Origin: a phage
Assembly: GCA_012401045.1 (NCBI GenBank)
Contig: GCA_012401045.1_4704.2
Length of the DNA stretch: 64,000 nt
Reading direction: 5' to 3' (one strand)
The translations under genes were made by a program, and so were the position numbers. The notes under the pieces are model-generated. The model was not told the origin of the DNA and did not search any database. It was given only the letters and a program-made list of their open reading frames with translations. How positions within the stretch are numbered: the first letter of the stretch is position 1; each line of letters opens with the position of its first letter. Below are positions 1,795 to 44,380 of the stretch, piece by piece.

Positions 1795-1883
1795 TATCAC
1801 GGTGCCGGATGAATGTCCGGTGCAATGAAACCATCCGCAACGTTGTCATCAAGAATATCATCCAACGAAGCAGCTACGGTAGT

Positions 1884-4106: not shown

Positions 4107-4255
4107 TGAAAGTATCCTTTACAGAATTAACTTATATAAGTCGGTCGATAGACCATAGCGTACACGCGTGCATGCGCCACTATAGTATCAGTAAACACTT
4201 ACCGTTATTGAGGTCGTGATACAACACTAAAAATGCCGCATAACTTTTCCCTACG

Positions 4256-7977: not shown

Positions 7978-8053
7978 CGTATTTTACCTTTCTATGTTAG
8001 GTGGATTTCGGATAGAAGAATCAATGCATAAACTAATTTAAGTTTGTTAAGGT

Positions 8054-8956: not shown

Positions 8957-9041
8957 GTTGAGCTCCTTGATTACGATAAGGATGATTGCGGTTTTGTGGT
9001 GTTGGTAGGGCCCTAAACAAATGAACCCTACTAATATTAGG

Positions 9042-15278: not shown

Positions 15279-18200
15279 TTACTTGTAGGCACCGCAATGG
15301 GCTTTGATGAGGAAAAGCACCGCTTGCATCGGTTTATTGAACTGTTGCCATAACGTCAATGCCGGATGGAACAACCAATCTTCCAGGCCGAGAACAATAC
15401 CGTAGTTAACGACATTATTAACATCGTTCTCAACGTTGAGTTCGCTATCCAGGAATTTATCGATTGAACGCAGGGTCTGCATGGCGTTGTCAGCAATAAG
15501 CCAAGCTTCATGTGCTTCACGAGCCGCACGCAGCACTGCCTCCAGTTCGCTGATAGTAGCTACCGGTAATTCCTCACTGGTGAGGTCGTCAGAAACCGTA
15601 AACTGGCGATTGATACCGGTGTAGATCCACTGCATCAGTTTCGCTGCTTCCTCGTTCGGGTTGTTACGCGTTGTCGCATAAGTCGCGCTCACCTTCACGA
15701 TGTGCGTTTCACCAAGATACGCTTTGGACCCAACACCTTTACGATCGCTGTCTTTCCACGGTTGTACGGTAGCGACCATGAGCTTATCCCATTTCTGAAT
15801 AGGAATACGCTTCAGACCAACAACCGATCCAGCGGATGTTTCGGACTGGTTGCTCTTCCGCACGTCGCTGAGCTCACGATCGATCGCAACGATTAATTCA
15901 CGCGTCATGTTACCAAGCATTTTGATTTCACCCAACGCAGCGATGAGCTTCTTCACATCGGTAACAGGTTCACCACCGATGGTAAGATGACGGATGAAAC
16001 GTTTCAGAATAATCCGTTCTGCTGCTGGGTTACCGCGCCGCGCTTTGGCCAACGCTTGCTGTGTTTCGGCGAACAGCTTATCCCATGGAGCCGTAGCGGC
16101 GGTATAGTAACGATGGTTGGTTTCAATCCAGTTACCGATACGGTTGACCGCGGTCTTAACGGTATCCATGAATCCTTCCATCGCAATTTCGGTAGCTTCG
16201 ACGTTACCCTGGAAGTTATCAGGACCGATCTCGCGTGCCGCTACCAGAATACCTTCCACCGCGCTCACCGCGTGGCGACCGATAGCCAGATTTCGCTGCG
16301 CTTCTTCAGCACGCTCAACGAATTCCACCACCGCAGGATCGTCAACGATTTCCACCTCAGCAACAACACGAGTACCAGCATCGCCTTCCAGTGTTTCGAT
16401 GGTGACAACAGGATCGTTTTCACCAGCAACATCCTGGTATTCTTCCTGTTTGAGATCGCCGTTATCAGCCGCTGCGACAGCGGTGAGTATACGAATGGTA
16501 ACATCGCCGAGTTCTTTTGCAGCGAATCCGTAAACGGTGCATGCGGTCGTTGCAAAGTTCATCAGGGTACGTGTGCGCTGCGTGACGTAGCGTGCGCCCG
16601 ATTCGTTTTCCACTTTGTCTAGATCGCGGAGTAACTGCTCAGCCGTCTCCTGAAGTTGAGTAGCTGCTTTCAGGAGGTCTTCGTCAAACAGTTTTGTTGA
16701 TGCATCGATCAGCATTTCAACGCTAACGTTGGGCGGTACAGCATCATCCTGCTGTTTCATGGCGCTAAGTTCGTAACGGAACTCACGAATGCCGTTTAAC
16801 GCGTCGTCGATAGAATATCCGAACGCTTTCACGCCCGCCATTCCAAGAGCTGCTTTCATTTCAGCTGGATGCTGAACTTGCTCGCCTTCCTTGCTGTTCT
16901 TTAACTCATCGAAATATTTCTTCGACGCGTCCGCAATACGTTTACTGTCTTTAACCGCATTTACGATCTTATCGACAGATTTCGAGTCGTTTGCGAGCAG
17001 CGTATCCAGTTTATTCCACTCAACGTCAACCTTCTTGGTGTCGCTCGGCGGAGGAAGCAGTTTCATCACTGGTGCTGTGCGTTGTTCTTTGGTCAGCTTG
17101 TTGGCCTTCTCTTCGATTTTTTTCTTATTAACACCAAAGAGATTTTTCAAACGCGCCACGAGGGCTTTTAAGAACTTCGCGACCGCTTCGTAAACCGATT
17201 TCAGAATCTGTTTAAAGCGACCCGGCTGCTTTTCCCCGTCTTCCAGATTGAGATCGCTGTTCAGTGCGACATCAAGCTGTTTGTACGATTCCATGATGTA
17301 TTCGTCTTTGATTTCAGGACGAATCTCGAAGCTTTCCATCGGACCTTCAGCCGGACGGAATTCCATTTTCAGTTCGCCTTGCAGGGTAGGGTCGACAATG
17401 GCGATCGCTTCACCCTGACCATCAGCGTTAAAGCGTTCAGCGTAACGAGTACGGCGAACAATAACACTCTTACCCCCGTCAAGACGACGTACCACCATGG
17501 TGCCAGGAATGTACGGTTGTTCTGTTTCAATGACGGTTACATCTGTTTCACCCTCACCGAGAATAACAGATGCACGCTGTTCAACAACAGGAACATCTAA
17601 TACACCACGGGCTTCCAGCTCTTGATGAATTTCGAACGACTCTTGTTTCAGATCTTCATCTTCTTCGTTTTCGTCGTCTTCATCATCGCCACCTTTGGTG
17701 TTTTCATCACCCTTGGTGGTTGTGTCGTCGGTGGCACCAGCGTCAGCGTCGGTGTTAGCAGGTTCTTCGGACGCAGGTTCGGTGGTGTTGTCCTCCGTGG
17801 ACGACCCGTCAGTGTTATCGACATCAACATCACCTTGCAGTTCTGTTTCCTGAGCAACTGCTTCGGCTTTCTGCTCGCCGGTATTGCCGTCATTAGCGTC
17901 AACGACAGGTTGTTCGTCAGCGACGGTATCTTCAACCTTTTCTACTTTCTCCACGACACGTTTAATCACGGTGACTTTGATGGGTTCTTCCGTCGTTTTG
18001 GTTTCTGGCGTCGCCTCGGCTACCTCAGCTGCTGTTTCAGCAACAGGTTCTGCTTTTTCCGGTTCGACGACATTGCCTTTAACACCTTCGGTGGTTTCTG
18101 CAGGTTGCGTCGCCTGTTCGATTTGTGCCGGATTGGTTGGATCGATGGCGTTAGCCGCATCCTGAATCTTGTTCTTCAGGTTGTCGCGGTCAGCGTTAAC

Positions 18201-18656
18201 GGTCGGGTCGTTGGTCACTTTCGGTGCCGGTGTTTCGGTCGGTGCGTTTGCCGGATACGGGTTCTTCGGCTCTTCGCCAGGTGCGGTCGGTACCGCGATC
18301 AGAACGAACGGTTGAACATCGTTACCGTCTTCCATGGTTACGCCACCGTTGCTCGGTGTGAAACGAATTCGTAAACTACCATCAATAGGACGGGTCACAA
18401 TAACAGCACGTACGACATCCTCACCGTTCTCATCCGTGCTACGAATCACACGAACAGCGTCATCAACGGTAGCCCCTTCCTCGAGCGTATCTGATTCGAT
18501 CGTCGCTTCGATGCTGTCTGGCCGTGCCGCTGTAGGTAATGCGATCACTTGCTCTTCTTTATCAGTAGAAAGCGTTGCTTTGACTTCGATAGGTGTATCG
18601 CCGCTTTCCAGGTTAAGATGCGACTTACGCATCAGATCAGCTAACGATTTTTTCAT
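15279..18656 (-). CDS. large virion-type protein (1125 aa) with long acidic, Thr/Glu/Asp-rich low-complexity N-terminal region
   Basis: AAGAGGA RBS; hairpin terminator just downstream of stop; low-complexity acidic region of ~300 aa. Confidence 0.75.
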   Translation of the reverse strand: MKKSLADLMRKSHLNLESGDTPIEVKATLSTDKEEQVIALPTAARPDSIEATIESDTLEEGATVDDAVRVIRSTDENGEDVVRAVIVTRPIDGSLRIRFTPSNGGVTMEDGNDVQPFVLIAVPTAPGEEPKNPYPANAPTETPAPKVTNDPTVNADRDNLKNKIQDAANAIDPTNPAQIEQATQPAETTEGVKGNVVEPEKAEPVAETAAEVAEATPETKTTEEPIKVTVIKRVVEKVEKVEDTVADEQPVVDANDGNTGEQKAEAVAQETELQGDVDVDNTDGSSTEDNTTEPASEEPANTDADAGATDDTTTKGDENTKGGDDEDDENEEDEDLKQESFEIHQELEARGVLDVPVVEQRASVILGEGETDVTVIETEQPYIPGTMVVRRLDGGKSVIVRRTRYAERFNADGQGEAIAIVDPTLQGELKMEFRPAEGPMESFEIRPEIKDEYIMESYKQLDVALNSDLNLEDGEKQPGRFKQILKSVYEAVAKFLKALVARLKNLFGVNKKKIEEKANKLTKEQRTAPVMKLLPPPSDTKKVDVEWNKLDTLLANDSKSVDKIVNAVKDSKRIADASKKYFDELKNSKEGEQVQHPAEMKAALGMAGVKAFGYSIDDALNGIREFRYELSAMKQQDDAVPPNVSVEMLIDASTKLFDEDLLKAATQLQETAEQLLRDLDKVENESGARYVTQRTRTLMNFATTACTVYGFAAKELGDVTIRILTAVAAADNGDLKQEEYQDVAGENDPVVTIETLEGDAGTRVVAEVEIVDDPAVVEFVERAEEAQRNLAIGRHAVSAVEGILVAAREIGPDNFQGNVEATEIAMEGFMDTVKTAVNRIGNWIETNHRYYTAATAPWDKLFAETQQALAKARRGNPAAERIILKRFIRHLTIGGEPVTDVKKLIAALGEIKMLGNMTRELIVAIDRELSDVRKSNQSETSAGSVVGLKRIPIQKWDKLMVATVQPWKDSDRKGVGSKAYLGETHIVKVSATYATTRNNPNEEAAKLMQWIYTGINRQFTVSDDLTSEELPVATISELEAVLRAAREAHEAWLIADNAMQTLRSIDKFLDSELNVENDVNNVVNYGIVLGLEDWLFHPALTLWQQFNKPMQAVLFLIKAHCGAYK

Positions 18657-18671
18657 AAAGCGTTATTCCTC

Positions 18672-19778
18672 TTAAAAGTAATATTTCAGCGCCTCGCGAG
18701 AGACATCAAGCATAGCCGCTGTTGAATTCGTAAAGAACTCGGCATAGCCCACAAGCGGCACCTTGATCCACGCGGTATACGCTGTAAGGTATCGAGAAAG
18801 GGCTACCATAGCATCATCAGAAGCAGTAGTAACTGACAACTGACCTTGTTGACGATAAACGTCGTTAAGTTTTGCTTGTAGATTCCCTGCGATTTCGAGT
18901 AACTCGTTGGCGTACTTTTTACGATGGTAACTAACCAGTAAATCAACACCCGTATTTACCGACTCGAGTAGCACACCAACTTGTTCTAATGTTGGCATTG
19001 TAACCACCATATCCCGTTCAACGGACGGTACATCCTGGACTTCAAACCGTGCGGATTGAATAGCGAGGGACTGTTGAATTGAACCAGAACCTGAGGTGGT
19101 AACCTGATCGAGTCGTAGCGTACGGTTACCCAGTAACGTTACATTGACGAGTCTCGATTCGTTCAGCGTACTGTAGACTTTATGCAATAACGTATACGCG
19201 TCACGGTTAATCACATCGATTAATGCGGTATCCGTCTGTTTTAAGATAATGTCGAGCGCTCTATCTAACGTATTAGCGAACTGTTTGAAATCATCACGGA
19301 ACGACGAAGACAAGAGATATTCAGCGATTGCCAAATTCTGTTTGTATAACGTATTCCCAGTTGTGAAGTCGAATCCAAAACTGTTCCCATACCGTAGGTG
19401 CGGTGCCAGCGTTGACGAAGCTTCGAAGCTTTGCGCGATGGGTTTACGACCAACGGCTTTTGTGTAGTGACGGCGGATGTTGCTGAGTTCGAGCTGTAGT
19501 GCGCGACTACGATCGATAAACCGGGCGATAAACGCAGTGATGTTCCGCAACGTTGTCCAGATTGCATCGATGATGGCTTTGATGATTTTCATCGCAAGCT
19601 GATTGTACGATTCCATCGTGAGGAGATCAGCACTTTCCGTGGTATAACTGGTTGTCGGAATACCGCCCGCTTGCTGATAAATGAGCTGGTGAATTTGTCG
19701 TTGCGTTGCTGTCTCTGGCACAGGTAATTTTTTTAACAAGCTTAACGCTTGAATCTGTCCATCATAGGTCTGCAGCAT
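18672..19778 (-). CDS. hypothetical head-associated protein (~368 aa)
   Basis: Track ORF extends to 19820; internal ATG (codon 15) has GAGGA RBS. Amphipathic helix resembles the paralog family below. Confidence 0.65.
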   Translation of the reverse strand: MLQTYDGQIQALSLLKKLPVPETATQRQIHQLIYQQAGGIPTTSYTTESADLLTMESYNQLAMKIIKAIIDAIWTTLRNITAFIARFIDRSRALQLELSNIRRHYTKAVGRKPIAQSFEASSTLAPHLRYGNSFGFDFTTGNTLYKQNLAIAEYLLSSSFRDDFKQFANTLDRALDIILKQTDTALIDVINRDAYTLLHKVYSTLNESRLVNVTLLGNRTLRLDQVTTSGSGSIQQSLAIQSARFEVQDVPSVERDMVVTMPTLEQVGVLLESVNTGVDLLVSYHRKKYANELLEIAGNLQAKLNDVYRQQGQLSVTTASDDAMVALSRYLTAYTAWIKVPLVGYAEFFTNSTAAMLDVSREALKYYF

Positions 19779-21063
19779 TGCTGGTTTCCTCAAGTTCGAG
19801 ATGCGCGTCAAGATAATCATTAAGACCGTCGATGACGTCGCAGACAGTTAACAGGAATCGGGCAAAAGCAACCGCCTGGAAGCCGACGACGTTACGCGCG
19901 ATACCCACACGTTGAACGATAGCGGATGCGGCGGTATCGTTGTTGTCCATCTGTTGTAGCAGGCGCTCGTAAGGTTGAATCCATTCGTCCTGATCGGCAA
20001 GGCTTGCTTCAAGACAACGTTTAAATTCCAACTGTCGTAGCGTAGACCATAACGTACTTAATGCGTTGATGATCGCGTTGGTTCCGTCGATAACATCGTT
20101 TAACGGCAAGAAACGGAATCCGTCTTTTGCTGATTGGAAAGGTACGGCTTCCCACACAACGCTGAATTGCGTTCCTGTTGCGTCTTCGATGTTGTGTAAT
20201 TTAAGATAGGAAGCACCAACAGGTACGTCAACGACTAGATCGTCTGTTCCGGTAGGCGTTAACGGCTTCTCGCATAACGCATCGTTGATGACTTCAAGGA
20301 TATTCTCCCAACAGGCTTCGTTTTCTGCAGCGATACCTTCTTTGTTATCCGCTGATGGTGCTTTTAGTAGCCGCATTAATAACGGATCGAGTTGACGATG
20401 CCACGCTGCGAGGATTCCTGTGTTCGTTACGATGTTTTCTGCGGTTTGTCGTAAATCAGCAATACTGCTTACCGCACCGCCTTTCGGATGAAGATAACGC
20501 CAGTTGTAGGGAAAGTTCTCCCAGAACGCGTTATCTTCATCGACGTCGTATTCGGAAATATTTTTCAACGCAACCGCTTTCTTTAATAACGGCTTCACCT
20601 GACGAACGAATCGACGATAACAACGATTACAGATATCGATCGCGTAACGGTATAACTCGTTCATGTAAAGCCATAACGCTCGGGTTGCTTCTTTTGCGGT
20701 CTTGTCAAAACTTTCCATGTTCAAGCTCATCCCGCTGGAAGTTTCCTCTTCCAGACCCTCGATGATTTGGTTTGGGTCCATCCCCATCCCGGCTGCTGCG
20801 GTTGTTGCGATATGTTTGATGGTGTTAATATCGCGTTCTTCAACTTCAGCCATGTTTGGGACAATATCCAGCCTGAGTTTATTTAATGTTTGAAGGTGTT
20901 GTTCACCTTCTTTCATCACCGTGTTTGTTTCGTCGATTGAGTGAAACTGATTCTCAATATTACTGGCATCGAGAACGTTGCCAGCGATACCGAACGATTC
21001 TACAGGTTCATCATCAATCCCTTGAAATAACGATGTCATGGGTTGTTGTAACACGTTTTCCAT
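19762..21063 (-). CDS. paralogous acidic head-type protein (433 aa), candidate proteolytically processed internal head protein
   Basis: AGGAG RBS; acidic N-terminal region with I-I-E-G motif followed by amphipathic helix, shared with 21212..22501, 22511..23827, 23930..25252 and 35044..37839. Confidence 0.7.
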   Translation of the reverse strand: MENVLQQPMTSLFQGIDDEPVESFGIAGNVLDASNIENQFHSIDETNTVMKEGEQHLQTLNKLRLDIVPNMAEVEERDINTIKHIATTAAAGMGMDPNQIIEGLEEETSSGMSLNMESFDKTAKEATRALWLYMNELYRYAIDICNRCYRRFVRQVKPLLKKAVALKNISEYDVDEDNAFWENFPYNWRYLHPKGGAVSSIADLRQTAENIVTNTGILAAWHRQLDPLLMRLLKAPSADNKEGIAAENEACWENILEVINDALCEKPLTPTGTDDLVVDVPVGASYLKLHNIEDATGTQFSVVWEAVPFQSAKDGFRFLPLNDVIDGTNAIINALSTLWSTLRQLEFKRCLEASLADQDEWIQPYERLLQQMDNNDTAASAIVQRVGIARNVVGFQAVAFARFLLTVCDVIDGLNDYLDAHLELEETSNAADL

Positions 21064-21161
21064 TTGGGACTCCTACGTAGGAAAATCTTGGCGGGTGATC
21101 ATGTCCGCCATTTACCTTCTGAACCGTTGATTCAGAAGTCAAAAGATAACCGGATACCAAC

Positions 21162-21209
21162 GCCATAAACCTTCCTCCAACCCAACAGGGAAGGAGGAAG
21201 GGATATGGT
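21162..21209 (-). terminator. hairpin of the CCTTCCTCC...GGAGGAAGG family
   Basis: Downstream of 21212..22501; two further short palindromes at ~21089-21110 and ~21117-21138 in the same spacer. Confidence 0.55.
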
Positions 21210-21211
21210 GA

Positions 21212-22501
21212 TTATGCTTTTTCGGTCGCTGCGTTGAAGTATTTCGCAGCAGCAAATACAGCATCCGCATATTGACGTATCGAAGCGCGAAGAATCTTGG
21301 TTGACAATACTGTACTTAAACGTGCCATTTCAGAAACCGCGCTTACATAAGGACGGATGGTTTCACGATCGGCTTCAGGCAGCTTGTCAAGCATATCACC
21401 CCACTTCGTTTTGATTTTCATGCCGTTGAGTTTAGCGGTACGCTCCACAGAACCAGCCAAAGCTTCAACCATGTGGAAATAAGAGGAGTCTATCGTACGG
21501 AACACGTTAAGATAGGAAGTCAATGCACCTTTCAGTTCGTTATCGTCTTTGAAAATGTTTGCGTTCTCTATCTCACCGGTCGCCGTCGTCTCGGTTTCAA
21601 CCCGAATATTTTTCACCAACGTGTAGGCTTTAATCGCATCACGTTCGTTTTCAACAGCATCGAGACCTTGAATAACGAAACGTTTCCCACCGCTCTCTGG
21701 AAAAACAACTTTATTCAGAGCCGATTTGATCGCAAGCAGGTATTTGTCTAAGATAGACGGAAGCAGTGTGAGGTCAGTGAGGTCTGCGACCTTTTTATTG
21801 ATATCAGCCACTTGCTTAAACAATGAATCCACCCCGCTTGCGCTTGCAGCGAGTTGTTCGATATGCTTGCTTGCAAACACGGCATTCGCTGATTTCGCAT
21901 TAGGGAACATATTGACCATATTTCCAGTGGGCTTATCCAACTGTTTGATATGGCGCTCACCTTTATTCACAGCGGTTGCGATGTTGACAATTTTGTTGTA
22001 TGCGACAACCAGGTTCTTGAACAACATCTGGAACAGTTTGAACAGCTGCTCAGCGATATTCGCAATGATTACCCAGACCGCATATAACGCTTGTGCTGCG
22101 CGTTCTTTAAAACCTTCCAGTACAATAGCTTGCCCTTCCACCAAACGATCGTCGGCTTGGAACATGTCTTCATCGGACATCCCCAGGTTAGCTGCTGACG
22201 TCGAAGCAATCTGACGGATAAGTGCGATGTCGCTGGCGCGAGCTTCAGGGATCGTAGGTGCGATCATGTACGCGGTATCTTCCAGCGTTGCTGAGGTACG
22301 CACCGCAATTTCAGCCAGTTCGCTGGATTCATCGATCGTCTCGTCGGTACGTCGAATCACCAACTCAACTTCGTCCTCTTCGATTTCTGCGTTAGGATCG
22401 TGTTGCTCCGCTGGAATTGCTGCAAGAAGATCTTCGGCGCTGAGCAATGCGAGTTCGAATGCGTTTTTATTGACGTTATCAAAAAGAGAAATACGTGCCA
22501 T
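21212..22501 (-). CDS. paralogous acidic head-type protein (429 aa)
   Basis: AAGGA RBS; N-terminal acidic region and IVLEGFKERA motif then amphipathic helix; hairpin terminator after stop. Confidence 0.7.
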   Translation of the reverse strand: MARISLFDNVNKNAFELALLSAEDLLAAIPAEQHDPNAEIEEDEVELVIRRTDETIDESSELAEIAVRTSATLEDTAYMIAPTIPEARASDIALIRQIASTSAANLGMSDEDMFQADDRLVEGQAIVLEGFKERAAQALYAVWVIIANIAEQLFKLFQMLFKNLVVAYNKIVNIATAVNKGERHIKQLDKPTGNMVNMFPNAKSANAVFASKHIEQLAASASGVDSLFKQVADINKKVADLTDLTLLPSILDKYLLAIKSALNKVVFPESGGKRFVIQGLDAVENERDAIKAYTLVKNIRVETETTATGEIENANIFKDDNELKGALTSYLNVFRTIDSSYFHMVEALAGSVERTAKLNGMKIKTKWGDMLDKLPEADRETIRPYVSAVSEMARLSTVLSTKILRASIRQYADAVFAAAKYFNAATEKA

Positions 22502-22510
22502 GTTAGTTCC

Positions 22511-23827
22511 TTAACCTTTGGTATAAGCTTTAACGAGAGTGTTGATAAATGAAGTCAGTGCGCGAAGATATTGGTAAGCGAACTGGTTTTCAATACGGTT
22601 CTCTTTACCGCAAAGCAGAATCGCACGCTTAACGAGCTTAGGGTAGATCTCAACGTACGGTTGGTAGCTTGCATCAAAATTCTGCTCGTTGAAGCGTTTC
22701 ATGGTGATTTCCTGGATGCGCTCCATGGTGCGAATTTTATTGCGAGAGAACATCTCAGAGAAAGCGCGTCCGCGTTTTGTTACCATCAACAGATCTTTCG
22801 CGAACGTCAGTTGTCGAACGTTACGCAAATCGTCCGGTGTCGGCAGGACGTACGTTTCCGGGTCACTATCCCATTCAACATCTTCAACGACAATATCCAA
22901 GTCGAGGTAACGTTTAACCGCATCGATGATATTGTCTTTTGACGCATCGAATTCTTTCAAGAAGACCGCGCCGTTGATGTAGCGGATGCGTTTTCCGGAA
23001 ACCGTTGGGGTGATAACGTCAGTACCTTCCACGGAACCGCGATTTTCCAGCGTCGATTTGACAGCGTTCAAGAAAGTCAGATAATCAACGGGAAGTTTTT
23101 CAACCTTATCTAAATGGAAGTCGACGATGCTTAATCCTAACCCATCAATAACTGAATAGCCGTCTGATTTAAGGAACATCTGATTGAAGGTATCGATGTT
23201 GCTTTTCAGCGCGTCTACGCCACCAACGTTGTTACGGTTAGGGAAAAGTGTCCGCCACTCCGCTTTAAACGCAACTTCTTTATTTTCCTCGTATTTGCCT
23301 TTAGGCATTTGTTCGAGGTCTGCAACGGCTTTCTGAAAATTGCGCGTCTCGTCGTAAACAAGACGGGTAAGCTTCTCGAAGGCTGCTGCCAAGGTCAGGG
23401 CAATATCAACGATGATATCCCAGATCTTTTTCATGGCTTTTACAACGGTGTCCTTAAACCCTTCAATAACCAAAGCTTCTCCAACCTCAACACGATCGGT
23501 TGGCGTCAGCAATGCTTCGGAGGGTAGACCCAGAGCAATCGATGCGGATTCTTGCACGTTACGAACTAATGCAACGTCACTGTAGTTAGCCGATTCGATA
23601 GTCGGAGCAACATCAAAACTGATTTCCCGCAGTGCAGCAACAGCAGGGAAAGCACGATCAAGTGCGTCTTCATGTTCGTCGATTGTCGCCAAACGCAATT
23701 CAACACCATCGGCATCGATGACATCGGCTGTAGGCTCCACGGCAAGCGCCTCAGCAACAATAGGATCTTTTTCAAACGCCTCAAGGCTGATATCGCCTTG
23801 GGTCGCAAATAGCGGTATGTGTACCAT
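22511..23827 (-). CDS. paralogous acidic head-type protein (~438 aa)
   Basis: Track ORF starts at TTG (23851); first ATG is codon 9 with GGAGA RBS; LVIEGFKD motif. Confidence 0.7.
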   Translation of the reverse strand: MVHIPLFATQGDISLEAFEKDPIVAEALAVEPTADVIDADGVELRLATIDEHEDALDRAFPAVAALREISFDVAPTIESANYSDVALVRNVQESASIALGLPSEALLTPTDRVEVGEALVIEGFKDTVVKAMKKIWDIIVDIALTLAAAFEKLTRLVYDETRNFQKAVADLEQMPKGKYEENKEVAFKAEWRTLFPNRNNVGGVDALKSNIDTFNQMFLKSDGYSVIDGLGLSIVDFHLDKVEKLPVDYLTFLNAVKSTLENRGSVEGTDVITPTVSGKRIRYINGAVFLKEFDASKDNIIDAVKRYLDLDIVVEDVEWDSDPETYVLPTPDDLRNVRQLTFAKDLLMVTKRGRAFSEMFSRNKIRTMERIQEITMKRFNEQNFDASYQPYVEIYPKLVKRAILLCGKENRIENQFAYQYLRALTSFINTLVKAYTKG

Positions 23828-23867
23828 GTGTTGTCTCCAGTAATGATTCAAAAGATAAACCTGAGCG

Positions 23868-23913
23868 GCATAGAACCCTCTCCCAACCCGTCAGGGAAGG
23901 GAGAGGGGATATG
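23868..23913 (-). terminator. hairpin of the CCCTCTCCC...GGGAGAGGG family
   Basis: Downstream of the highly expressed gene 23930..25252. Confidence 0.55.
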
Positions 23914-23929
23914 TCAGTTTATTAACTGA

Positions 23930-25252
23930 TTACTGCTGTGCTGCGTCAGCCGGTTTCTCAGCCGCCTGGCCGCCGTACTCTTTCAGCATTTTAGCAACGC
24001 CATCCAGGACAGCGTTACCTGCCTGAACACCGTATTTCATCAGACCAGTCTGCGGGTTCACGTAGCAGGAACGTGCGTCTTTCAGTGCAGACAGTACAGC
24101 TTGAACACGCTGTTTTTCCTGAGCGGAAACTTCGCCTTTCTTAGACAGATCGGCTTCCATATCGTCACCGAATTTAACAGCGTCTTTGAAGCCCTGGGAT
24201 TTCTTACCGATGTTGCCTTTCAGCGCCAGCAGTTTGTCAGCCAGTACTTCAACACCGCTAACCGCAGCAGCCAGCTGATTCAGGGACAGGACGGTAGCTT
24301 CAACTTCTTTTGCTTCGCCAGAGCGTTCCCAGGTTACTTTACCATCGTTGGCTTTGAAACCCCAGCCCGCAGGACCAGCAACGTCGGCAATCGCCGGAGC
24401 GTTCAGTTTATCAGCGTACTCGGTGTGAGATTTAGCGACAACGGTACCAACGAATTTATCAGCACGATCGTCAGCAGCCTTCATTGCTTTCTCGAAGGTG
24501 TCAGCGATTTTGGTCGCGCCGGTAACCAGATCATCACCACCGATGTAACCAGAAACGCCGCTACCCAGCTTAACTTTGGTATTTTTAGCAACGCCTTTAC
24601 GCTTGCCGATCATTTCTTTCAGTTTAGCAGCACGTGCTTTCAGTTTGGTCGCGCCGTCGAAGATGCGATCCATGAACTTCACGAAGGTTTCCCAGGAAGT
24701 TTTCAGGAAGTTCTTGATGGTTGCCCACAGTTTCTGCCACCATTTTTGTTCTTCCAGGAAGATCATGTTGGTTGCATCGTAGCGGGAAGCGGAACCACCG
24801 AAGCTTTCGAAGGACGGCATGGTTTCCGGCAGTTTGAAACCGATAGTACCACACAGACGTTTCAGATTACGCATGTGTTCCTGAGCGGTCTGTGCAGACA
24901 TACCGCCGTCTTTCAGGTAGCTTTCGGTTGCAACAACGGTTTCCGTCAGTTCATCCATGGCTTCGTCCATGGCTTCTGCGGTTTCGTCGTCTTTTGCAAT
25001 TTCGATAACAACAGCATCAACCTGCTCGATATCACCACGAACTTCGATAGCCAGTTCGGTTTCAGCTGCGGTATCTTCAGCGATTTCAGCACGTTCGGTC
25101 AGTTCAGCCACAACGGTTTCATCCGCTGGTGCAGCATCAGCTGCCGGTTCTGCTTCAACGGTTGCCGCTGCATCCGGGTCGATCTCAGCAGCCAGTTGAA
25201 CCAGCTGTGCGTTAGATGGATTTGCGACAAGACGATCAAAAATAGAAGGCAT
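23930..25252 (-). CDS. abundant Ala-rich acidic head-type protein (440 aa), member of paralog family
   Basis: Strongly host-optimal codon usage, AAGGA RBS, hairpin terminator after stop; acidic N-terminus then amphipathic helix. Confidence 0.7.
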   Translation of the reverse strand: MPSIFDRLVANPSNAQLVQLAAEIDPDAAATVEAEPAADAAPADETVVAELTERAEIAEDTAAETELAIEVRGDIEQVDAVVIEIAKDDETAEAMDEAMDELTETVVATESYLKDGGMSAQTAQEHMRNLKRLCGTIGFKLPETMPSFESFGGSASRYDATNMIFLEEQKWWQKLWATIKNFLKTSWETFVKFMDRIFDGATKLKARAAKLKEMIGKRKGVAKNTKVKLGSGVSGYIGGDDLVTGATKIADTFEKAMKAADDRADKFVGTVVAKSHTEYADKLNAPAIADVAGPAGWGFKANDGKVTWERSGEAKEVEATVLSLNQLAAAVSGVEVLADKLLALKGNIGKKSQGFKDAVKFGDDMEADLSKKGEVSAQEKQRVQAVLSALKDARSCYVNPQTGLMKYGVQAGNAVLDGVAKMLKEYGGQAAEKPADAAQQ

Positions 25253-25316
25253 AATTTGTTTCCTTTACAATAAATTGCACATTAGCTAATGCGGCTTAAG
25301 TGAACCGTCAGCTCAC

Positions 25317-25847
25317 TTAAAAGCCCTTAAAACCCGGTGCCATAGGTTGCCCAAACACCGCATTCAAAGTACATATGATGTCCTGGATGCCATTGTCCCA
25401 ATGGAGCCAAGTACGCACCATCTCTTCGTCTGACAACGTGATATAACTCATAAGTTTACCGCTGCTTTCCAGACGTTGGTGTGAACTTAACGACTGACGA
25501 TCTGACCAGTTATCAATCAATTGACCAGCAATCTGAACGTTCGTGTCTCGTCTACCCGTGTGAATGAACCGTAGTGTATCACGGATAAACTCCAGACTGG
25601 TGAAGTTCAGATTTGGGTTATGGCTGTTCATTTCCACCCAATCGGTGATGGGGTACATCAAACGATAAAGGGTAGAAAGAACCTGACGTTCATATTTCCA
25701 GTCATCGAGAGGAGTACCGTCGACCAGACGCTGATACAAACTAACAACGTCACGATCGTAGTTCTCCTGACGTTTTACACCGTTAACCGGAAATCCAAAG
25801 AACCCGGTACCGTATAACGTTAAAGGGACGTCACGAAGTGCATTCAT
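25317..25847 (-). CDS. hypothetical protein (176 aa)
   Basis: ATG start overlapping upstream stop; hairpin overlapping its own stop. Confidence 0.65.
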   Translation of the reverse strand: MNALRDVPLTLYGTGFFGFPVNGVKRQENYDRDVVSLYQRLVDGTPLDDWKYERQVLSTLYRLMYPITDWVEMNSHNPNLNFTSLEFIRDTLRFIHTGRRDTNVQIAGQLIDNWSDRQSLSSHQRLESSGKLMSYITLSDEEMVRTWLHWDNGIQDIICTLNAVFGQPMAPGFKGF

Positions 25848-32191: not shown

Positions 32192-34984
32192 TTATCTTAC
32201 GTTATTGCTGTTCTGCTGTTCGCTGAACCAACTGTACACCTTGAGATCGGTACCGTATTTCAATGCGATATACGCATTCAGCGCAGCACAGAACAAAGAC
32301 GCGAATGCCCATATCAGCGAAGGATCAACATCTTCCGTTACCACCTGGAGAGTATTATCCGGTTCCCATGATGGAGAACTGTCCATGAACGTCGTGTACC
32401 ATTCCCGCCGTTGTTCTTCGGTGGTAAAGTCGCTATGAGGTTCCAACGCTTCTTTTGCCAGACGTCGATATTCGAACATATGCGTTGCTAAAGCCGACGA
32501 GTTACCAGATTCGCCTTCATAGTTCGGATCCACCGCATAACAGAGTTCTGTTGAATCCAACAAAGCAATCGCTTGTGTGATGCTGTCGGCAGTGCCTGCA
32601 CCATAAAGCTCGATAGACCGCGAAAGCTTTTCACAGAACGCATTTAACGCGGAAGGATTGGACACCTGAAGGTCAAGGCCTAATGTCCACGGATAGTTAC
32701 TGAATACGCCCGTAAACCGCGGCATAACACCCAACAGATGTTGTCCGATTACAGCACGGTTATAAACAGCCCGGTTATAGACTTGAAACGCAGCCTCCAA
32801 AGCTTGGTTATAATGACGACGAAGTTCGTCACGCGAGTTGCGGAATCTGTTTGCCGCAAGACTTGTGGCTGCGACGCTACAAACATCGTAATTGGTGGAC
32901 GAGAGCACAGTTTCGTTAAGATCGAACGATTCCTGTTTCAACGATCCGCTAACCGCTGCTGCTTCGCTGTTTGCTTTATCGACAACAGTACTCAAAGCGT
33001 TGATGTAACGTTTAGCTCGGACTTCCAGCCATTGTGCGATACCGAGAATATCCACCGCGGCTTTAGCAAGATCGCGTGCATTCACGATTTCGTTCTTCAA
33101 CGCCCCTAAACCTTTATTTTCAGGCAATGAGGCTTGTTGACGAATCATGCTGTTCAACATGGTAAGCAGATTATCCAACTCATGTCCACTGACCTTGTTA
33201 CGTGCATCGGTAATAGGACCTTGCAGGAATTTACGGCAACCATCGTTGTATCGAATCAGTTTATCCACATCGATAGATTCGTTCGTGGATTCCTTGAACT
33301 GATTCTTCAATTCTTCACGGTAGTCATGGATTTCACTTGCGAGATTATCGATAGTGATACCATCATATCCAAGAAGAACTTTATTGAAGTTACCTTTCTC
33401 GAATGCAAGAGCAAGACCTTCACGAATCTTAGCGAGTTTGTCCTGATCAAGTTCACGACCGTTCGATAGCTCTTTCACTTCCGAGCTGATTAATGCCGAA
33501 ACGTTACCCAGATTGTCGGTAACTCCTTTGAACGCTCCCGACCAGATCGTTCCTGCTTCAGCGTATTTCGCAATGGTCTGAATACCGACGGTATGCAACG
33601 ACGCTAAACGTTTCTTCGTGCCTTCGGTAAGCAGTGCGTCTTTAGCTCGCGTAAGTTGACTGTTATTAGCTTCCGCTTGCTGGATTGCTGCTTTCGCACT
33701 TCCATTACGCCAGCTCTTAACTAACCAATCAACCAAACGTTTTAGGATGTTGACGGTGTATTCCATTGTCCGCCGTAACGTTTCCCACGCGCTTTCTGCG
33801 GTATAAATGCCGTACCCTTCCATCTTCGTTGGGTCAAAGAAACCTTCCTGCACGAGATCAGTACGTGTGTAGCCATCAGCAGCTTCTACTTCCGCCTGGG
33901 TTTTATCCCAGAAGTCGTCGCTCTTTGCAGCAATCGCTGTATCTTTAACGTCCAGGATGATCTGACCAACCGTTTGTGCAAACAGCAAGGCCGCACGTAC
34001 CGATTGTGCGAACATCCGCTGATATTTGATTCGAACGCATTGCATCTGGGTTAGCAGATTCAGTTGTGCGATCCCATCCAAGGTGCTATCCTGAGCAAGC
34101 CCTTCGGCTTTAGTGATAACCTGTTTTACACGTTCAGCGACATCACCGTACTGCTGGCAAACATCTCGCAGAATACGTGCCGCGAAGACCCCGGTACCGA
34201 TATAGTTCAATAGGTCTTTTAACGACCATTCGGTCGGACAATCGGTCGGCGCAATAGGGAGTAAGCAACCATCACCGTCCATGAATCTCTCTAATGCGCT
34301 AATATCCTGATTTTCTACGCTCATGGGGATATCGACATCAGCCGCTTGCAGATCCAGCATCTGTTGTAGGATGTTGGTATCGGCTTGTACAAGCGTCACA
34401 AGCGCTTGGCTGTGTGCGATTATTGGTAACGCAGGTGACCATACTGCAGCAAGCTTGTCGGCGTGACGTTGAATGGCATACCCCATATCCTCGATCACAT
34501 CGGGATGCTCGATAACCCCCTGAAGCGTTTGATGTAGCTCACCGAGTTGCTGAGACAGATCGACCATCATGGTGTTGAAGGTTTCACCATCCTCTTTGTG
34601 GTTGTCCAGACGCTCGAGTTCATGTCGAAGCAATGTAACGAGCTGTCCGTTGCCTTCTTGCTTCAGCTTGCTTTCCATTAACGTAATGGCTTTATCGACG
34701 ATCTGACACGCTTCACGAAAACCGGTTGTGGAAGGAAGCTCTGTCCATAACGCCAACGGTTTACCGTCAAGGGCTTCCGGCATCGATAAAGAAAGCATAG
34801 ACAGTTGTTGACGTGATACTTGCTGTTCACGGTGTAATGTTTCTTTTAACGCCAGGAGATCGTCAAGAAACGCGCCGTTAAGGGTGGTCGTACGCGGTGT
34901 TGAATTAATACCGTCAGTTAACGATTCAAGCACCAGGAGACCGTTATCAGCTGAAGAGAGTCCCGCGGCAAGATATTTGTTCAT
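32192..34984 (-). CDS. large hypothetical protein (~930 aa)
   Basis: Track ORF extends to GTG at 35041 through a perfect 12-bp-stem hairpin; first ATG is codon 20 with GGAG RBS. Confidence 0.7.
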   Translation of the reverse strand: MNKYLAAGLSSADNGLLVLESLTDGINSTPRTTTLNGAFLDDLLALKETLHREQQVSRQQLSMLSLSMPEALDGKPLALWTELPSTTGFREACQIVDKAITLMESKLKQEGNGQLVTLLRHELERLDNHKEDGETFNTMMVDLSQQLGELHQTLQGVIEHPDVIEDMGYAIQRHADKLAAVWSPALPIIAHSQALVTLVQADTNILQQMLDLQAADVDIPMSVENQDISALERFMDGDGCLLPIAPTDCPTEWSLKDLLNYIGTGVFAARILRDVCQQYGDVAERVKQVITKAEGLAQDSTLDGIAQLNLLTQMQCVRIKYQRMFAQSVRAALLFAQTVGQIILDVKDTAIAAKSDDFWDKTQAEVEAADGYTRTDLVQEGFFDPTKMEGYGIYTAESAWETLRRTMEYTVNILKRLVDWLVKSWRNGSAKAAIQQAEANNSQLTRAKDALLTEGTKKRLASLHTVGIQTIAKYAEAGTIWSGAFKGVTDNLGNVSALISSEVKELSNGRELDQDKLAKIREGLALAFEKGNFNKVLLGYDGITIDNLASEIHDYREELKNQFKESTNESIDVDKLIRYNDGCRKFLQGPITDARNKVSGHELDNLLTMLNSMIRQQASLPENKGLGALKNEIVNARDLAKAAVDILGIAQWLEVRAKRYINALSTVVDKANSEAAAVSGSLKQESFDLNETVLSSTNYDVCSVAATSLAANRFRNSRDELRRHYNQALEAAFQVYNRAVYNRAVIGQHLLGVMPRFTGVFSNYPWTLGLDLQVSNPSALNAFCEKLSRSIELYGAGTADSITQAIALLDSTELCYAVDPNYEGESGNSSALATHMFEYRRLAKEALEPHSDFTTEEQRREWYTTFMDSSPSWEPDNTLQVVTEDVDPSLIWAFASLFCAALNAYIALKYGTDLKVYSWFSEQQNSNNVR

Positions 34985-34999
34985 AAAACACTCCGTTGG

Positions 35000-35030
35000 C
35001 CTAGGGGAAGGCTGAAAACCTTCCCCTAGG
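35000..35030 (-). terminator. perfect palindrome CCTAGGGGAAGG-ctgaaaa-CCTTCCCCTAGG (12-bp stems)
   Basis: Sits between stop of 35044..37839 and ATG 34984 of the next gene. Confidence 0.45.
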
Positions 35031-35043
35031 GTTATAAACACAA

Positions 35044-37839
35044 TTAAGCTAATTTACCGAAACCGGCTTTCTGCAGTTTCTCGTTGATGATTTTCGCTTC
35101 AGCGAAGACGTAATCACGATACGCAGTGACTAATCCGTCCACCCGTGAACGCAAGGCTTCTTCGAAGCTATACCACGCAGCGATTTCACGAATCTGTGCG
35201 TTGATATAATCAACGGTTGAGCGAAGCTCGGTTGCGTTTTCTTGCGGAATGGCTTTCACCTGGCGAGCAACGTCATTTAAACGACGGAACTGTGTTTCGA
35301 TTTCTTTAAACTTACTGTCGGCAAGTTTGCTGAATTCGTCACCAGAACGGGTAAATAACAGATAGCTGTTGCCGTCAAGTGCGGTCGCTAACTGCTGAAG
35401 TACGTTGGTGTCCGGATACACAGGAGTACCGCTTTGCAGTACTTTCTCACCGAATTCCGCGAAGTCCTTCGGTGGTAAGTGTGCAGACGTTGTCAATTCG
35501 TTGAAACGGAAAGTCAGCGAATTATCATACAGCATCCGGTACGCTTCCATACCCTGTTTCATGGTACCGGCCAGGTTAGCCAGACGCGGAGCAATCTCGC
35601 CTTCTTTAGCGCGTTTCTGGTCTTCTAACGCCCCTTCGAGTTCTTTACACTGGTCGTTCAGATACACGATACGATCAGGACGTAGACGACGCATCTCACG
35701 AAGAATAGTATCCAGCTTACCTTCCTGGAAATAACCCAACGTTAAAGACGTACACGCTTGCTGAAGACGATCGAACACCGGTAAGGTTACCATCTCCTTA
35801 CGGATACCATCAACAATCGCAGAAACAGCCGAAAGTTTCTGTTCTGTAGTCAATGGAACATCAGAGGCCGACTTGCTGGGTGCACCAACAACGTTACGCA
35901 TTGCGTCGGTATCCTCGGTTTTATCAACCTCTTTACGAACATGCTCATCAGGAACATAAACGTTCGCGTTACGTTTCGCCTGCTTGATGGCGTCGTTGGC
36001 CGCTTTTTCGGTGGCTGCTACGCTATCAGCACGTTTCTTCAAGAGTTCAATAATCCAGAGCAACAGACGACGAATCGCAGTATAGGCCGTCGTGATGATG
36101 ACACCGATAACAGCCATCTTCATGATACCGAACGATTCCATGGTCGGCTCTAACGCTTGGTCTGGCATATACCGTTCACGCAGCTCCAGATAGATCTGCT
36201 CATCTGGTTTGCTGACCTCACCACGATGCGAAGTACGATAGATGGCTTCGTCAATCTCAACAAGATCTTTGCGGGCCTGGCGATCGGATTCTGTTAAGTA
36301 AGCACAACCGGATACGTCGTCTTCGAAGCTTAAGAATTTGAAAAAGTCACTGACGTCGATCTTGATCTTCTTCGCTTCATTATCGACATCGATAACATCT
36401 TTTTTCTGTGCCTGATATTCCGCTTTGATGTCGTTCACCGGCTTCAACGCACGTTCTTTTAATGCCTGCACGATCTGTTTCCAGTCGGCGTCACGCTCAA
36501 GAACAAGGAAGTAATTCTTGAGTTCAAAAGCACGGTAACGCGCAACGAGTTGTTCTACCTGAATATGAGCGAGTTGCACATCCATCAGCCAACGCGACAT
36601 TGCTGAGATCAAACGGCTATAAGCAAGCAATGTCTGATATGTTAGCTTCATGTGCTTTTCGTACAGCTCAATATCGCCGTCTTGAATATCAGCCGTTGGG
36701 TTCATTTCCTTCGTTGCTTTGAAGATCTGTTCGGCCTCATTTAACGTTTGTTCGAATTTGACTTCATTAAACGTGTCAAACGGTTCAGCCAACTCCATCA
36801 TTCGATCGTGAAGCTCACGAACCCAGGCTTCCTTATTGTTGCGAATAGCTGCGTCATCGTGAAGTTCAGTTTGATGTTTCTGTACCCATTCTTCGACGAT
36901 ATCAGCGGCGGCAACAATTCCTGTACCATCGGAAACTAACGGAACAACTCCAGCAAGTACGCCTACACACGCCGGGGTTTTCCAATAATCGTTCAAAGCG
37001 TTTCTGAATTCAACGATGGATTGTACGTTTGGTACCGTATCCAAAAACGTACTGCCGTTACGGCTCATTGTCGTTACGATATCAGCGAATTCCTTCTGCT
37101 TAGCGGTAACAAAAGGAACCAGGACCATAAGCCATTCAGCAACCGACTTCGCTTTCTCTTTCAGATTTTTGTCAGCGATTTCCTTAAGGTTTATCGCACC
37201 ACCGTAACCTGCAAGCTCTTTATATACGTCGCTAAGGGTCATCTGTTTATCCAACATTTCTTTGAAACGTGGGTAATCAGCACCTAACGCATCGACAATA
37301 TCGTTGATTACGTCATCAGTTGTTGCGATAAACTTCTTCGTATCAACGTTTGAATATTTCCAGACGTATCGTACTGCTTTCTTGATTCCTGCAAAGATAA
37401 ACGCCCAGATACGCTTGATGAGTTCCCAGACTTTCTTCGCGCCATCGACAAACAGTTTAGAGACCTTGGCAACGAATCCTTCCTGCACCAATTCAACGCC
37501 GTTACGTGATGGGATTTCCGTGAAGAAAGCATCCGGCAGTTGTTTCGGGAATGCGTCACCAAGACGCATACGCAGTTCCGGTACATCAGCACGAGAAATA
37601 CCGCGTGTTACTAATTGTTCGTGAAGACGAACGTTTTCTTCACCAGAGGTCACGAATTCGTCAACATCGAAGGAGACCATTGTTTCCTGATCTTCGGTGG
37701 TAACGACGCTTGAACCATCACTGGTTTGGATGTCTTCGTCAGGGAATGCCATGAGCATACCGTGACGCATTTCAACCACCCCGTAATCGGTTGCTAAACC
37801 GAATTCGTTGTGGTCTGGGGTAATAACTGGGATACTCAT
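35044..37839 (-). CDS. large acidic head-type protein (931 aa), distant member of the paralog family, with one internal hydrophobic helix
   Basis: AAGGAGA RBS; N-terminal acidic region plus LVQEGF motif and amphipathic helix (WELIKRIWAFIFAGIKK) as in the 19762-25252 family. Confidence 0.7.
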   Translation of the reverse strand: MSIPVITPDHNEFGLATDYGVVEMRHGMLMAFPDEDIQTSDGSSVVTTEDQETMVSFDVDEFVTSGEENVRLHEQLVTRGISRADVPELRMRLGDAFPKQLPDAFFTEIPSRNGVELVQEGFVAKVSKLFVDGAKKVWELIKRIWAFIFAGIKKAVRYVWKYSNVDTKKFIATTDDVINDIVDALGADYPRFKEMLDKQMTLSDVYKELAGYGGAINLKEIADKNLKEKAKSVAEWLMVLVPFVTAKQKEFADIVTTMSRNGSTFLDTVPNVQSIVEFRNALNDYWKTPACVGVLAGVVPLVSDGTGIVAAADIVEEWVQKHQTELHDDAAIRNNKEAWVRELHDRMMELAEPFDTFNEVKFEQTLNEAEQIFKATKEMNPTADIQDGDIELYEKHMKLTYQTLLAYSRLISAMSRWLMDVQLAHIQVEQLVARYRAFELKNYFLVLERDADWKQIVQALKERALKPVNDIKAEYQAQKKDVIDVDNEAKKIKIDVSDFFKFLSFEDDVSGCAYLTESDRQARKDLVEIDEAIYRTSHRGEVSKPDEQIYLELRERYMPDQALEPTMESFGIMKMAVIGVIITTAYTAIRRLLLWIIELLKKRADSVAATEKAANDAIKQAKRNANVYVPDEHVRKEVDKTEDTDAMRNVVGAPSKSASDVPLTTEQKLSAVSAIVDGIRKEMVTLPVFDRLQQACTSLTLGYFQEGKLDTILREMRRLRPDRIVYLNDQCKELEGALEDQKRAKEGEIAPRLANLAGTMKQGMEAYRMLYDNSLTFRFNELTTSAHLPPKDFAEFGEKVLQSGTPVYPDTNVLQQLATALDGNSYLLFTRSGDEFSKLADSKFKEIETQFRRLNDVARQVKAIPQENATELRSTVDYINAQIREIAAWYSFEEALRSRVDGLVTAYRDYVFAEAKIINEKLQKAGFGKLA

Positions 37840-43146: not shown

Positions 43147-43182
43147 CTTTTTAATCCCTAGTTTGTTATTGATCACGTATAT

Positions 43183-43578: not shown

Positions 43579-43610
43579 TTTTTATCCTTAATGTTATCGA
43601 TTTGGAAATA

Positions 43611-44378: not shown

Positions 44379-44380
44379 GA

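Follow-up and report, generated by a model that had tools for sequence, protein, structure and literature searches.

Background

The closest described counterpart of the genes considered here, which fill positions 18672-25252 of a 64,000-nucleotide stretch of phage DNA (assembly GCA_012401045.1, contig GCA_012401045.1_4704.2; the whole stretch is called the window below), is a set of internal head proteins of Goslar, a nucleus-forming jumbo phage of Escherichia coli in the Chimalliviridae. In Goslar the fold of the Pfam family of phiKZ-like internal head proteins, PF12699, is common to gp53-gp58, with the same fold in gp54-57 and a PF12699 domain within gp53, and all six proteins are present in virions, at about 2150 copies of gp58, about 330 of gp53 and about 50-70 each of gp54-57 (gp54 about 70, gp55 about 50) (Basu et al. 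2026 preprint, 10.64898/2026.04.21.720040). Injection carries Goslar gp58 into the early infection vesicle. Its C-terminal fusion to superfolder green fluorescent protein (GFP) is packaged and injected into the host (PMC10541120). In phage SPN3US the prohead protease gp245 cleaves two PF12699 paralogues, gp53 and gp54, at sites that were mapped by semi-tryptic peptides: AQE-125↓GWKETLKDLFER in gp53, and ARE-137↓SLWDDIK and AQE-124↓SY in gp54 (PMC10052503; an arrow marks the cut or candidate bond throughout). The published cleavage rules are S/A/G-x-E for phiKZ and A-x-E with Ser favoured at P1' for SPN3US, and site information for phiKZ is available through PMC11297242 and PMC5694885. The processing of a PF12699 array by a prohead protease of the S80 family is established, expected biology of this phage group.

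In the window, five adjacent minus-strand open reading frames (ORFs) occupy 18672-25252. They are the orthologues of Goslar gp54-gp58, all of which carry the annotation "hypothetical" in Goslar, and with the neighbouring gp53 orthologue they make up, in a nucleus-forming jumbo phage like Goslar, a six-member array of PF12699 internal head proteins, also called "inner body" or ejection proteins. This family has already been described for Goslar; what is new here is the cleavage sites and an apparent shift in specificity, the Goslar preprint containing no mapping or discussion of propeptide cleavage or of a cleavage motif (10.64898/2026.04.21.720040). We consider it probable that an S80 protease cuts these inner-body proteins after the Glu of a short conserved motif and so removes an N-terminal propeptide, because the motif is in register with the mapped SPN3US sites, recurs at the position where the protease cuts itself, marks the end of a peptide from the virion protein gp64, and follows regions whose peptides are depleted from Goslar virions. 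A sequence-only reading of the window had proposed the motif as a propeptide cleavage site with E-G as the scissile position, and on the same four lines of evidence this proposal is probably right. Cleavage of these very bonds is inferred, as is the choice of the final site in gp58 and gp53.

The array as a PF12699 family

Goslar is the closest relative of the 6.6-kb stretch holding the five genes (94% nucleotide identity), and no other match was found in the phage collection. The Goslar proteins gp53-gp58 (10.64898/2026.04.21.720040) are 79-99% identical in amino acid sequence to those of the array, and the gene order is kept. The genes, named here after their Goslar orthologues, are as follows.

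15279..18656, minus strand: gp53 orthologue, 1125 amino acids, 93% identical to Goslar gp53; its N-terminal third is very acidic, and a PF12699-like domain lies at the C-terminus
18672..19820, minus strand: gp54 orthologue, probable PF12699 member; short non-acidic N-terminal extension
19762..21063, minus strand: gp55 orthologue, paralogue of gp56 and gp57 by BLASTP
21212..22501, minus strand: gp56 orthologue; acidic candidate propeptide (residues 1-129), then a helical PF12699-fold domain
22511..23851, minus strand: gp57 orthologue; the Goslar annotation starts at Met9
23930..25252, minus strand: gp58 orthologue, dominant internal head/ejection protein; PF12699 match, 99.3% identical to Goslar gp58

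Membership of the family is supported by different kinds of evidence for different genes. gp58 matches PF12699 over profile positions 6-385 of 387 (E=1.7e-21, 77.3 bits vs a cutoff of 27), while gp54 (residues 67-373, E=1.4e-4, 21.6 bits) and gp57 (residues 37-162, E=1.2e-4, 21.9 bits) match below the gathering score, and gp53, gp55 and gp56 have no PF12699 match in a Pfam hmmscan. PHROG 12254, "internal head protein", is matched by gp54 (E=0.008) and weakly by gp53 (E=1.2e-3, residues 822-930), and an hhalign match to the gp53 C-terminus begins in register at IAMEGF with a probability of only 23%. In pairwise BLASTP, gp56 and gp57 match each other at 3e-20 and gp55 matches both at about 1e-7; gp54 and gp58 have no significant match to other array proteins and join the family only through PF12699 or fold evidence. 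The tandem array of paralogues described in the sequence-only reading thus stands as five adjacent genes with gp55-gp57 paralogous by BLASTP, but gp54 and gp58 are not paralogues by that measure and gp53 had been omitted.

More sensitive comparisons place the array among jumbo-phage head proteins. When 1.84 billion representative proteins were searched with a gp55-57 profile, no more than 15 were found; among gp55-57 and ten relatives found with the profile, 7 of the 13 sequences pass PF12699 (best 7e-42), and an hhalign comparison of the profile with classical PF12699 members gives the right register at a low probability (32%). A word-indexed protein search returned only near Goslar-like relatives (67-98% identity), and tblastn of gp58 against phage genomes returned essentially Goslar alone. 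Structure modelling covered gp56 alone among the array proteins. Its AlphaFold2 model is confident from residue 160 (predicted local distance difference test score 70-93 over 160-429) and has 38 Foldseek hits at E<=1e-3, the top matches including an "internal head protein" and virion structural proteins of 201phi2-1, PhiEaH1 and Psa21; the match to jumbo-phage internal head proteins has E=7e-8.

The host-optimal codon bias that had been noticed in the last gene of the array is confirmed. The fraction of optimal codons (Fop), computed with a set of E. coli-optimal codons, is 0.83 in gp58, second to the major capsid gene at 0.85, against a window mean of 0.54±0.08, and this fits the status of gp58 as the most abundant non-shell virion protein. 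Long antisense ORFs lie on the plus strand opposite the major capsid gene (1809-4109, 766 amino acids) and opposite gp58 (24101-25273, 390 amino acids); as these are the two most codon-biased genes, the antisense ORFs are probably a by-product of codon bias and not genes. The start of gp54 is ambiguous: the ATG in the window overlaps gp55 by 59 nucleotides (19762-19820), and the Goslar start lies 14 codons (42 nucleotides) downstream, at 19778.

A conserved Glu motif ahead of the first helix

Candidate sites were found in all six array proteins and in two further head proteins, gp64 and gp65.

16170..16187, minus strand: gp53 candidate site IAME827↓GF, at the start of the PF12699-like domain
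17283..17651, minus strand: gp53 motif copies LKQE339↓SF, GPME441↓SF and YIME456↓SY, all kept in Goslar
19605..19622, minus strand: gp54 candidate site LTME70↓SY; the Pfam domain match starts 3 residues ahead
20707..20724, minus strand: gp55 candidate site LNME117↓SF, aligned column for column with gp56 VLE↓GF and gp57 VIE↓GF
22109..22126, minus strand: gp56 candidate site IVLE129↓GF; a predicted long helix (128-179) starts here
23456..23473, minus strand: gp57 candidate site LVIE130↓GF, aligned with gp55 and gp56
24800..24934, minus strand: gp58 candidate sites VATE110↓SY and PSFE149↓SF, in the linker ahead of the first Trp-rich helix
within 32192..35041, minus strand: gp64 motifs LVQE399↓GF, TKME408↓GY and LKQE704↓SF, from the motif scan
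37474-37491, minus strand: gp65 motif LVQE120↓GF, from the motif scan
36130-36147, minus strand: gp65 second motif PTME568↓SF, from the motif scan

The 56 non-overlapping ORFs of the window contain E[GS][FYW] 29 times, vs 12.9±3.6 after shuffling of residues, and the narrower [MQ]E[GS][FY] 11 times, vs an expectation of 0.72±0.85; none of 2000 shuffles gave more than 4 copies of the latter. Each of these 11 copies falls within gp53, gp54, gp55, gp64 or gp65. The sites were chosen for Gly or Ser followed by Phe or Tyr at P1'-P2', so invariance at these positions is a selection criterion; at P2, 11 of the 15 candidate sites have Met or Gln.

In an alignment of gp55, gp56 and gp57, residues G123, E129, F131, A138 and W143 (gp56 numbering) are invariant, and a Trp-containing helix lies 14-18 residues downstream of the motif in gp56 (IVLE↓GFKE...W), gp57 (LVIE↓GFKD...W) and gp65 (LVQE↓GFVA...W). 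The motif as read from the sequence is confirmed for gp56 IVLE, gp57 LVIE and gp65 LVQE with their Trp helix, but the "IIEG" that had been taken for the gp55 motif is not the aligned segment, which is LNME117↓SF. The family alignment agrees with the claim of a conserved motif: of all the columns in 13 sequences, gp55-57 and the ten remote relatives (15-27% identity), only that of the motif Glu never varies, with Gly next after it in 11 of 13. In the remote relatives two sites come one after the other, PAxE↓(S/N)(Y/F) first and xAxE↓G(I/F)(K/R)(E/D) second, as in SPN3US gp53, and their P3 residue is A, S or T.

The motif also divides regions of different character. Ahead of it the sequence is acidic in gp55-gp58 (net charge -17 to -27), as had been stated for the whole array, but not in gp54 (net +1); after it the sequence is neutral or basic in gp56-gp58. 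In gp56 the propeptide (1-129) is 99.2% identical to that of Goslar vs 68.8% for the mature domain (161-429), and the motif region is fully conserved. The divergent core of gp56 lies at about 21700-21889, part of the gene has no megablast match, and the neighbouring genes are 93-99% identical to Goslar; judged from these identities, the ejected domain looks like a case of recombinational replacement or fast evolution.

Mapped sites in relatives and the protease

Alignment with MAFFT and hhalign places gp56 IVLE129↓GFKE in register with SPN3US gp53 AQE125↓GWKE and with phiKZ gp93 ISLE↓DL, in each case ahead of the first long helix; the mapped SPN3US cut positions were confirmed in the SPN3US sequence. 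A search for the prohead protease gene with phmmer and with tblastn of phiKZ gp175 found no S80 protease in the 64-kb window, nor in the 38.5-85 kb or 150-200 kb parts of Goslar, but Goslar encodes one, Goslar_00223 (YP_009820907), at 203033-203839 (PF20034, E=1.3e-78). Because of this, the rest of the genome of the window phage very probably encodes an S80 protease too.

The Goslar protease is intact and present at about 160 copies per virion. It has a single E[GS][FYW] sequence, SPTME197↓GF, which aligns residue for residue with SPALE210↓NY of phiKZ gp175 and is close to the mapped self-cleavage site of SPN3US gp245, AQE-203. By mass spectrometry of Goslar virions, protease peptides from residues 142-165 were detected, while two searchable peptides from residues 201-228 were not.

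Peptides in Goslar virions

The Goslar virion peptide rows that we compared are alphabetical and run from first residues A to ELK; peptides starting with G or S lie outside them. Peptides from the proposed propeptides are either missing from the Goslar virion data or depleted about 100-fold. For gp57, peptides 21-45, 59-67 and 68-89 are absent while mature-region peptides are present, and gp56 peptide 89-96 is absent from the rows A to ELK. For gp58, peptide 55-72 has an area of 4.9e3 and 115-128 a total of about 1.7e4, against up to 7.9e4 for a mature-region peptide and 1.08e7 for the protein as a whole (87 peptides). The gp58 propeptide peptides thus make up about 0.05-0.2% of the total protein signal, a ratio like that of the missing N-terminus of the capsid protein, where a propeptide peptide has an area of about 3e3 vs 5.7e5.

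The N-terminal 157 residues of the capsid protein are missing from the Goslar map, the first ordered residue being S158 (10.64898/2026.04.21.720040). In the window the major capsid gene is at 1884-4106, and within residues 146-160 of its product S158 lies in ...GCESEELVQL↓SYDQK, where LVQLSY resembles LVQE↓GF with Leu for Glu. The peptide EELVQLSYDQK was not found in the Goslar rows. The candidate cleavage positions GCE150↓S, E152 and E153 precede S158, but none fits the motif.

At the candidate sites themselves, the tryptic peptide of gp53 that spans IAME827↓GF is barely detected (area 541, vs about 1e5 for its neighbours), and DEYIMESYK, which spans YIME456↓SY, was not detected in the Goslar rows. 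The gp58 fragment DDETAEA...VATE was not found in these rows either, and a final cut after residue 128, at PSFE149↓SF or later, is weakly preferred over one at VATE110↓SY.

The motif beyond the family

The same motif is present in two further head proteins.

32192..35041, minus strand: gp64 orthologue, virion protein with 3 motif copies
35044..37839, minus strand: gp65 orthologue, vertex-binding-complex protein; matches PDB chains of Goslar gp65 from the capsid structure over its full length (E=0)

One line of evidence for a cut comes from gp64, which carries the same LVQE↓GF as gp65. A semi-tryptic peptide of Goslar gp64, ANSEAAAVSGTLKQE, ends on the Glu of LKQE↓AF, the equivalent of LKQE704↓SF in the window (score 108, area 1.4e4, above the tryptic form), and of the 66 rows in this stretch of the Goslar peptide table only 2 end at a non-tryptic C-terminus. 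Several N-terminal peptides of gp64 are absent, and peptide 432-446 is strong (area 2.2e5).

The gene at 35044..37839 had been taken in the sequence-only reading for a distant member of the array, an assignment that we reject. Only the motif and the following helix are shared with the array (BLASTP E about 0.03 over 47 residues), and the PDB match is to gp65, the vertex-binding-complex protein that is the counterpart of phiKZ gp86 (10.64898/2026.04.21.720040), although direct BLASTP of gp65 against phiKZ gp86 is not significant (E=0.04). One deposited cryo-electron microscopy chain of gp65 starts at residue 135, 14 residues past LVQE120↓GF, and gp65 peptide 83-91 is present only in trace in the Goslar virion rows (area 451). 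In phiKZ, gp86 is itself produced by cleavage, and its N-terminus as modelled is close to mapped sites (PMC11297242). The phiKZ gp86 sequence has STE↓GF and ISQE↓AV ahead of its Trp helix.

Two further observations concern gp65. Within residues 565-600 (nucleotides 36040-36147) its second motif, PTME568↓SF, leads straight into a stretch that is strongly hydrophobic and transmembrane-like, GIMKMAVIGVIITTAYTAIRRLLLWIIELL, and identical in Goslar. PDB 36za chain C7, labelled "Inner-peripheral baseplate spoke gp32", carries gp65 sequence residues 134-934, and its label appears to be wrong.

Weighing of alternative explanations

Several results weigh against cleavage at the motif. The proteomic and structural data all come from Goslar and none from the window phage, and in the rows covered the support for cleavage of gp54-gp58 does not include a mature N-terminus, that is, a peptide starting with GF, SF or SY. 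Neither the C-side partner of the gp64 peptide (AFDLNEVV...) nor the N-side fragment of gp53 (EIGPDN...IAME) was found in the Goslar rows. Low levels of gp55 and gp58 propeptide peptides are detectable, and the gp53 N-terminal peptides 84-96 and 202-220 are abundant in virions, so the gp53 "propeptide" is kept in the virion whether it is cut or not. The hhalign matches are weak (probability 23-32%). Only 3 of the 15 candidate sites have the small P3 residue (S/A/G) of the published rules, in the form of A or S, the others having V, T, N, I, K or P. Finally, IQIE547↓GF lies inside the folded capsid protein and is evidently uncut, and therefore sequence alone is not sufficient for cleavage. Not every such Glu is cut in gp53 either, where the peptide spanning EAHE↓AW is intact and abundant.

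The P3 residues also enter into an alternative in which the motif serves protein structure or assembly, for instance by capping the N-terminus of the first helix or docking it to scaffold, capsid or partner proteins, and maturation takes place at upstream sites with a small residue, any residue and Glu; VATE110 in gp58 would be one such site, and the A-L-E-D segment kept in the propeptides of gp55-57 another. The motif and the Trp helix after it are conserved together, the predicted helix of gp56 begins at the motif, and in phiKZ the first helix after the cleavage site of gp162 packs into the gp86 bundle (PMC11297242); remote relatives also have an additional canonical A-x-E upstream (ALE↓D, PAxE↓SY). 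We nevertheless regard this as unlikely, since the homologous Glu of SPN3US gp53 is a mapped maturation site and the motif also occurs in non-homologous proteins, with several copies in acidic, disordered stretches of gp53 that have no helix after them, as well as at the self-cleavage position of the protease and at the end of the gp64 peptide. The two roles could moreover coexist, and the dispute is mainly about which bond is cut. An explanation that we find still harder to accept is that the proteins stay essentially full length in this phage and that the motif is the relic of a cleavage site no longer used. The abundance of gp53 N-terminal peptides and the detectable propeptide peptides of gp55 and gp58 would suit it, and the Goslar preprint reports no processing of these proteins (10.64898/2026.04.21.720040). 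Yet the Glu is invariant in very distant relatives, the motif region of gp56 is kept while the rest of the gene diverges, the gp57 propeptide peptides are absent with those of gp58 at a fraction of a percent of the signal, and an intact protease is present in virions at the copy number given above.

Chance, or a compositional coincidence among acidic, helix-rich proteins, can be dismissed with near certainty. It is true that E, G, S and F are common residues and that the pairwise similarity of gp54 and gp58 is not significant, but the excess of motif copies over the shuffles falls entirely within one functional class of proteins, and the Glu column is invariant. Removal of an N-terminal propeptide by cleavage at the motif Glu therefore remains the reading that we prefer.

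Proposed mechanism and specificity shift

If the motif is the cleavage site, each array protein would be made as a precursor consisting of an acidic N-terminal propeptide, about 56-150 residues long and far longer in gp53, and a helix-rich domain. The precursors would be assembled into the prohead, where an S80-family prohead protease encoded outside the window would cut after the Glu of x-[M/Q/L/I]-E↓[G/S]-[F/Y], directly ahead of the first helix that is amphipathic and contains Trp. Once released in this way, the helical domain, neutral or basic in charge, may stay with the DNA and be injected into the host, whereas the acidic propeptides would mostly be degraded or expelled. The packaging and injection of the gp58 C-terminal GFP fusion is what N-terminal processing predicts. 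The same recognition site may be used in the unrelated head proteins gp64 and gp65 and in the C-terminal tail of the protease itself, and a common recognition site would explain why the motif was met in a supposed distant member of the array.

The loss of a small P3 residue looks specific to the Goslar clade, because the remote relatives keep A, S or T at this position. On the strength of these alignments we tentatively suggest, as a possibility that we hold somewhat less probable than its opposite, that the S80 protease of the Goslar clade has been retuned to recognise P2 Met or Gln, P1 Glu and P1'-P2' Gly/Ser-Phe/Tyr in place of a small P3 residue, and that the motif with its Trp helix is a portable module found in unrelated head proteins. 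If so, this module, shared by the PF12699 proteins, gp64, gp65 and the protease, could coordinate co-assembly of the prohead core with timed release. The propeptide would then be a conserved assembly part and the released domain would be free to diversify, as in gp56 (99% vs 69%).

Thousands of copies of the PF12699 proteins enter the early infection vesicle together with the injected DNA, and their function is described as a key question of the chimallivirus life cycle that is still unsolved. Exact mature N-termini define the polypeptides that are injected, would guide the design of constructs, explain why C-terminal tags work, and would correct estimates of copy number and mass that are based on full-length masses. 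A protease motif unlike the phiKZ and SPN3US rules would allow other head substrates of Goslar-like phages to be predicted from sequence, and a shift in the motif would offer a natural comparison for the evolution of S80 protease specificity.

Neighbouring genes and other differences from Goslar

The gene next to the array provides an anchor for comparison with phiKZ.

25317..25847, minus strand: gp59, phiKZ gp91-type vertex-binding protein; PF25618 (PhiKZ_gp91) E=1e-46, synteny anchor to the phiKZ gp89-gp97 operon

Goslar gp61-63 are annotated as relatives of phiKZ ORF087-089. Since gp59 and these relatives adjoin the array, the array occupies the place of the phiKZ inner-body operon gp92-gp97, and the head-gene region is syntenic with phiKZ gp86-gp97.

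Elsewhere the window differs from Goslar at several places. At 8030-9820 about 1.8 kb stands in place of about 90 bp of Goslar, with ORFs at 8054-8956 (300 amino acids) and 9042-9824 (260 amino acids), neither of which has a Pfam match. Goslar in turn has an insertion of about 1.8 kb at the position corresponding to about 41333-41356 of the window, which includes the NUMOD1/HNH homing endonuclease Goslar_00069 and follows a DNA-polymerase-like ORF of 499 amino acids; the window is without this insertion and has one unbroken ORF of 583 amino acids (39841-41592). A further difference between the two phages is at 42756-44395 of the window, which has no megablast match within the fetched part of the Goslar record.

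Comparison with known systems

The logic proposed here is the same as in T4, where the internal, ejected head proteins IPI-III and Alt are trimmed after Glu by the related prohead protease gp21. Under the T4 rule, a short capsid-targeting sequence of some 10 residues at the N-terminus ends in L/I-x-E (PMC5694885). The propeptides predicted here, at 56-150 residues or more, are 5-15 times longer than those of T4, and the T4 proteins have no relation in sequence or fold to PF12699; in PHROG and Pfam searches the T4 internal proteins had no similarity to the array proteins.

A second parallel is phiKZ. Its proteins gp92-gp97, gp162 and gp163, with the protease gp175 (MEROPS S80), have a helix-rich fold and include a syntenic operon beside the gp89-gp91 homologues. 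In the phiKZ inner-body proteins the helical domain is cut away from an N-terminal region, gp86 also arises by cleavage, and gp97 has SLE532↓SF ahead of a helix. After cleavage the N-terminal fragments of phiKZ gp93 and gp162 remain attached to the wall of the capsid. Unlike phiKZ, Goslar shows no ordered inner body, and unlike the window sites the phiKZ motif, S/A/G-x-E, has a variable P1'.

A third parallel is paralogue family A of SPN3US, whose members gp53 and gp54 are abundant ejection proteins, belong to the same Pfam family and have an acidic propeptide of about 125-137 residues that is cut after a Glu before the first amphipathic helix, with extra sites within the propeptide. SPN3US has two such paralogues and the window phage six, and SPN3US requires Ala at P3 (A-x-E), whereas the sites in the window have mostly V, T, N, I, K or P at this position, with Gly or Ser and then Phe or Tyr at P1'-P2'.

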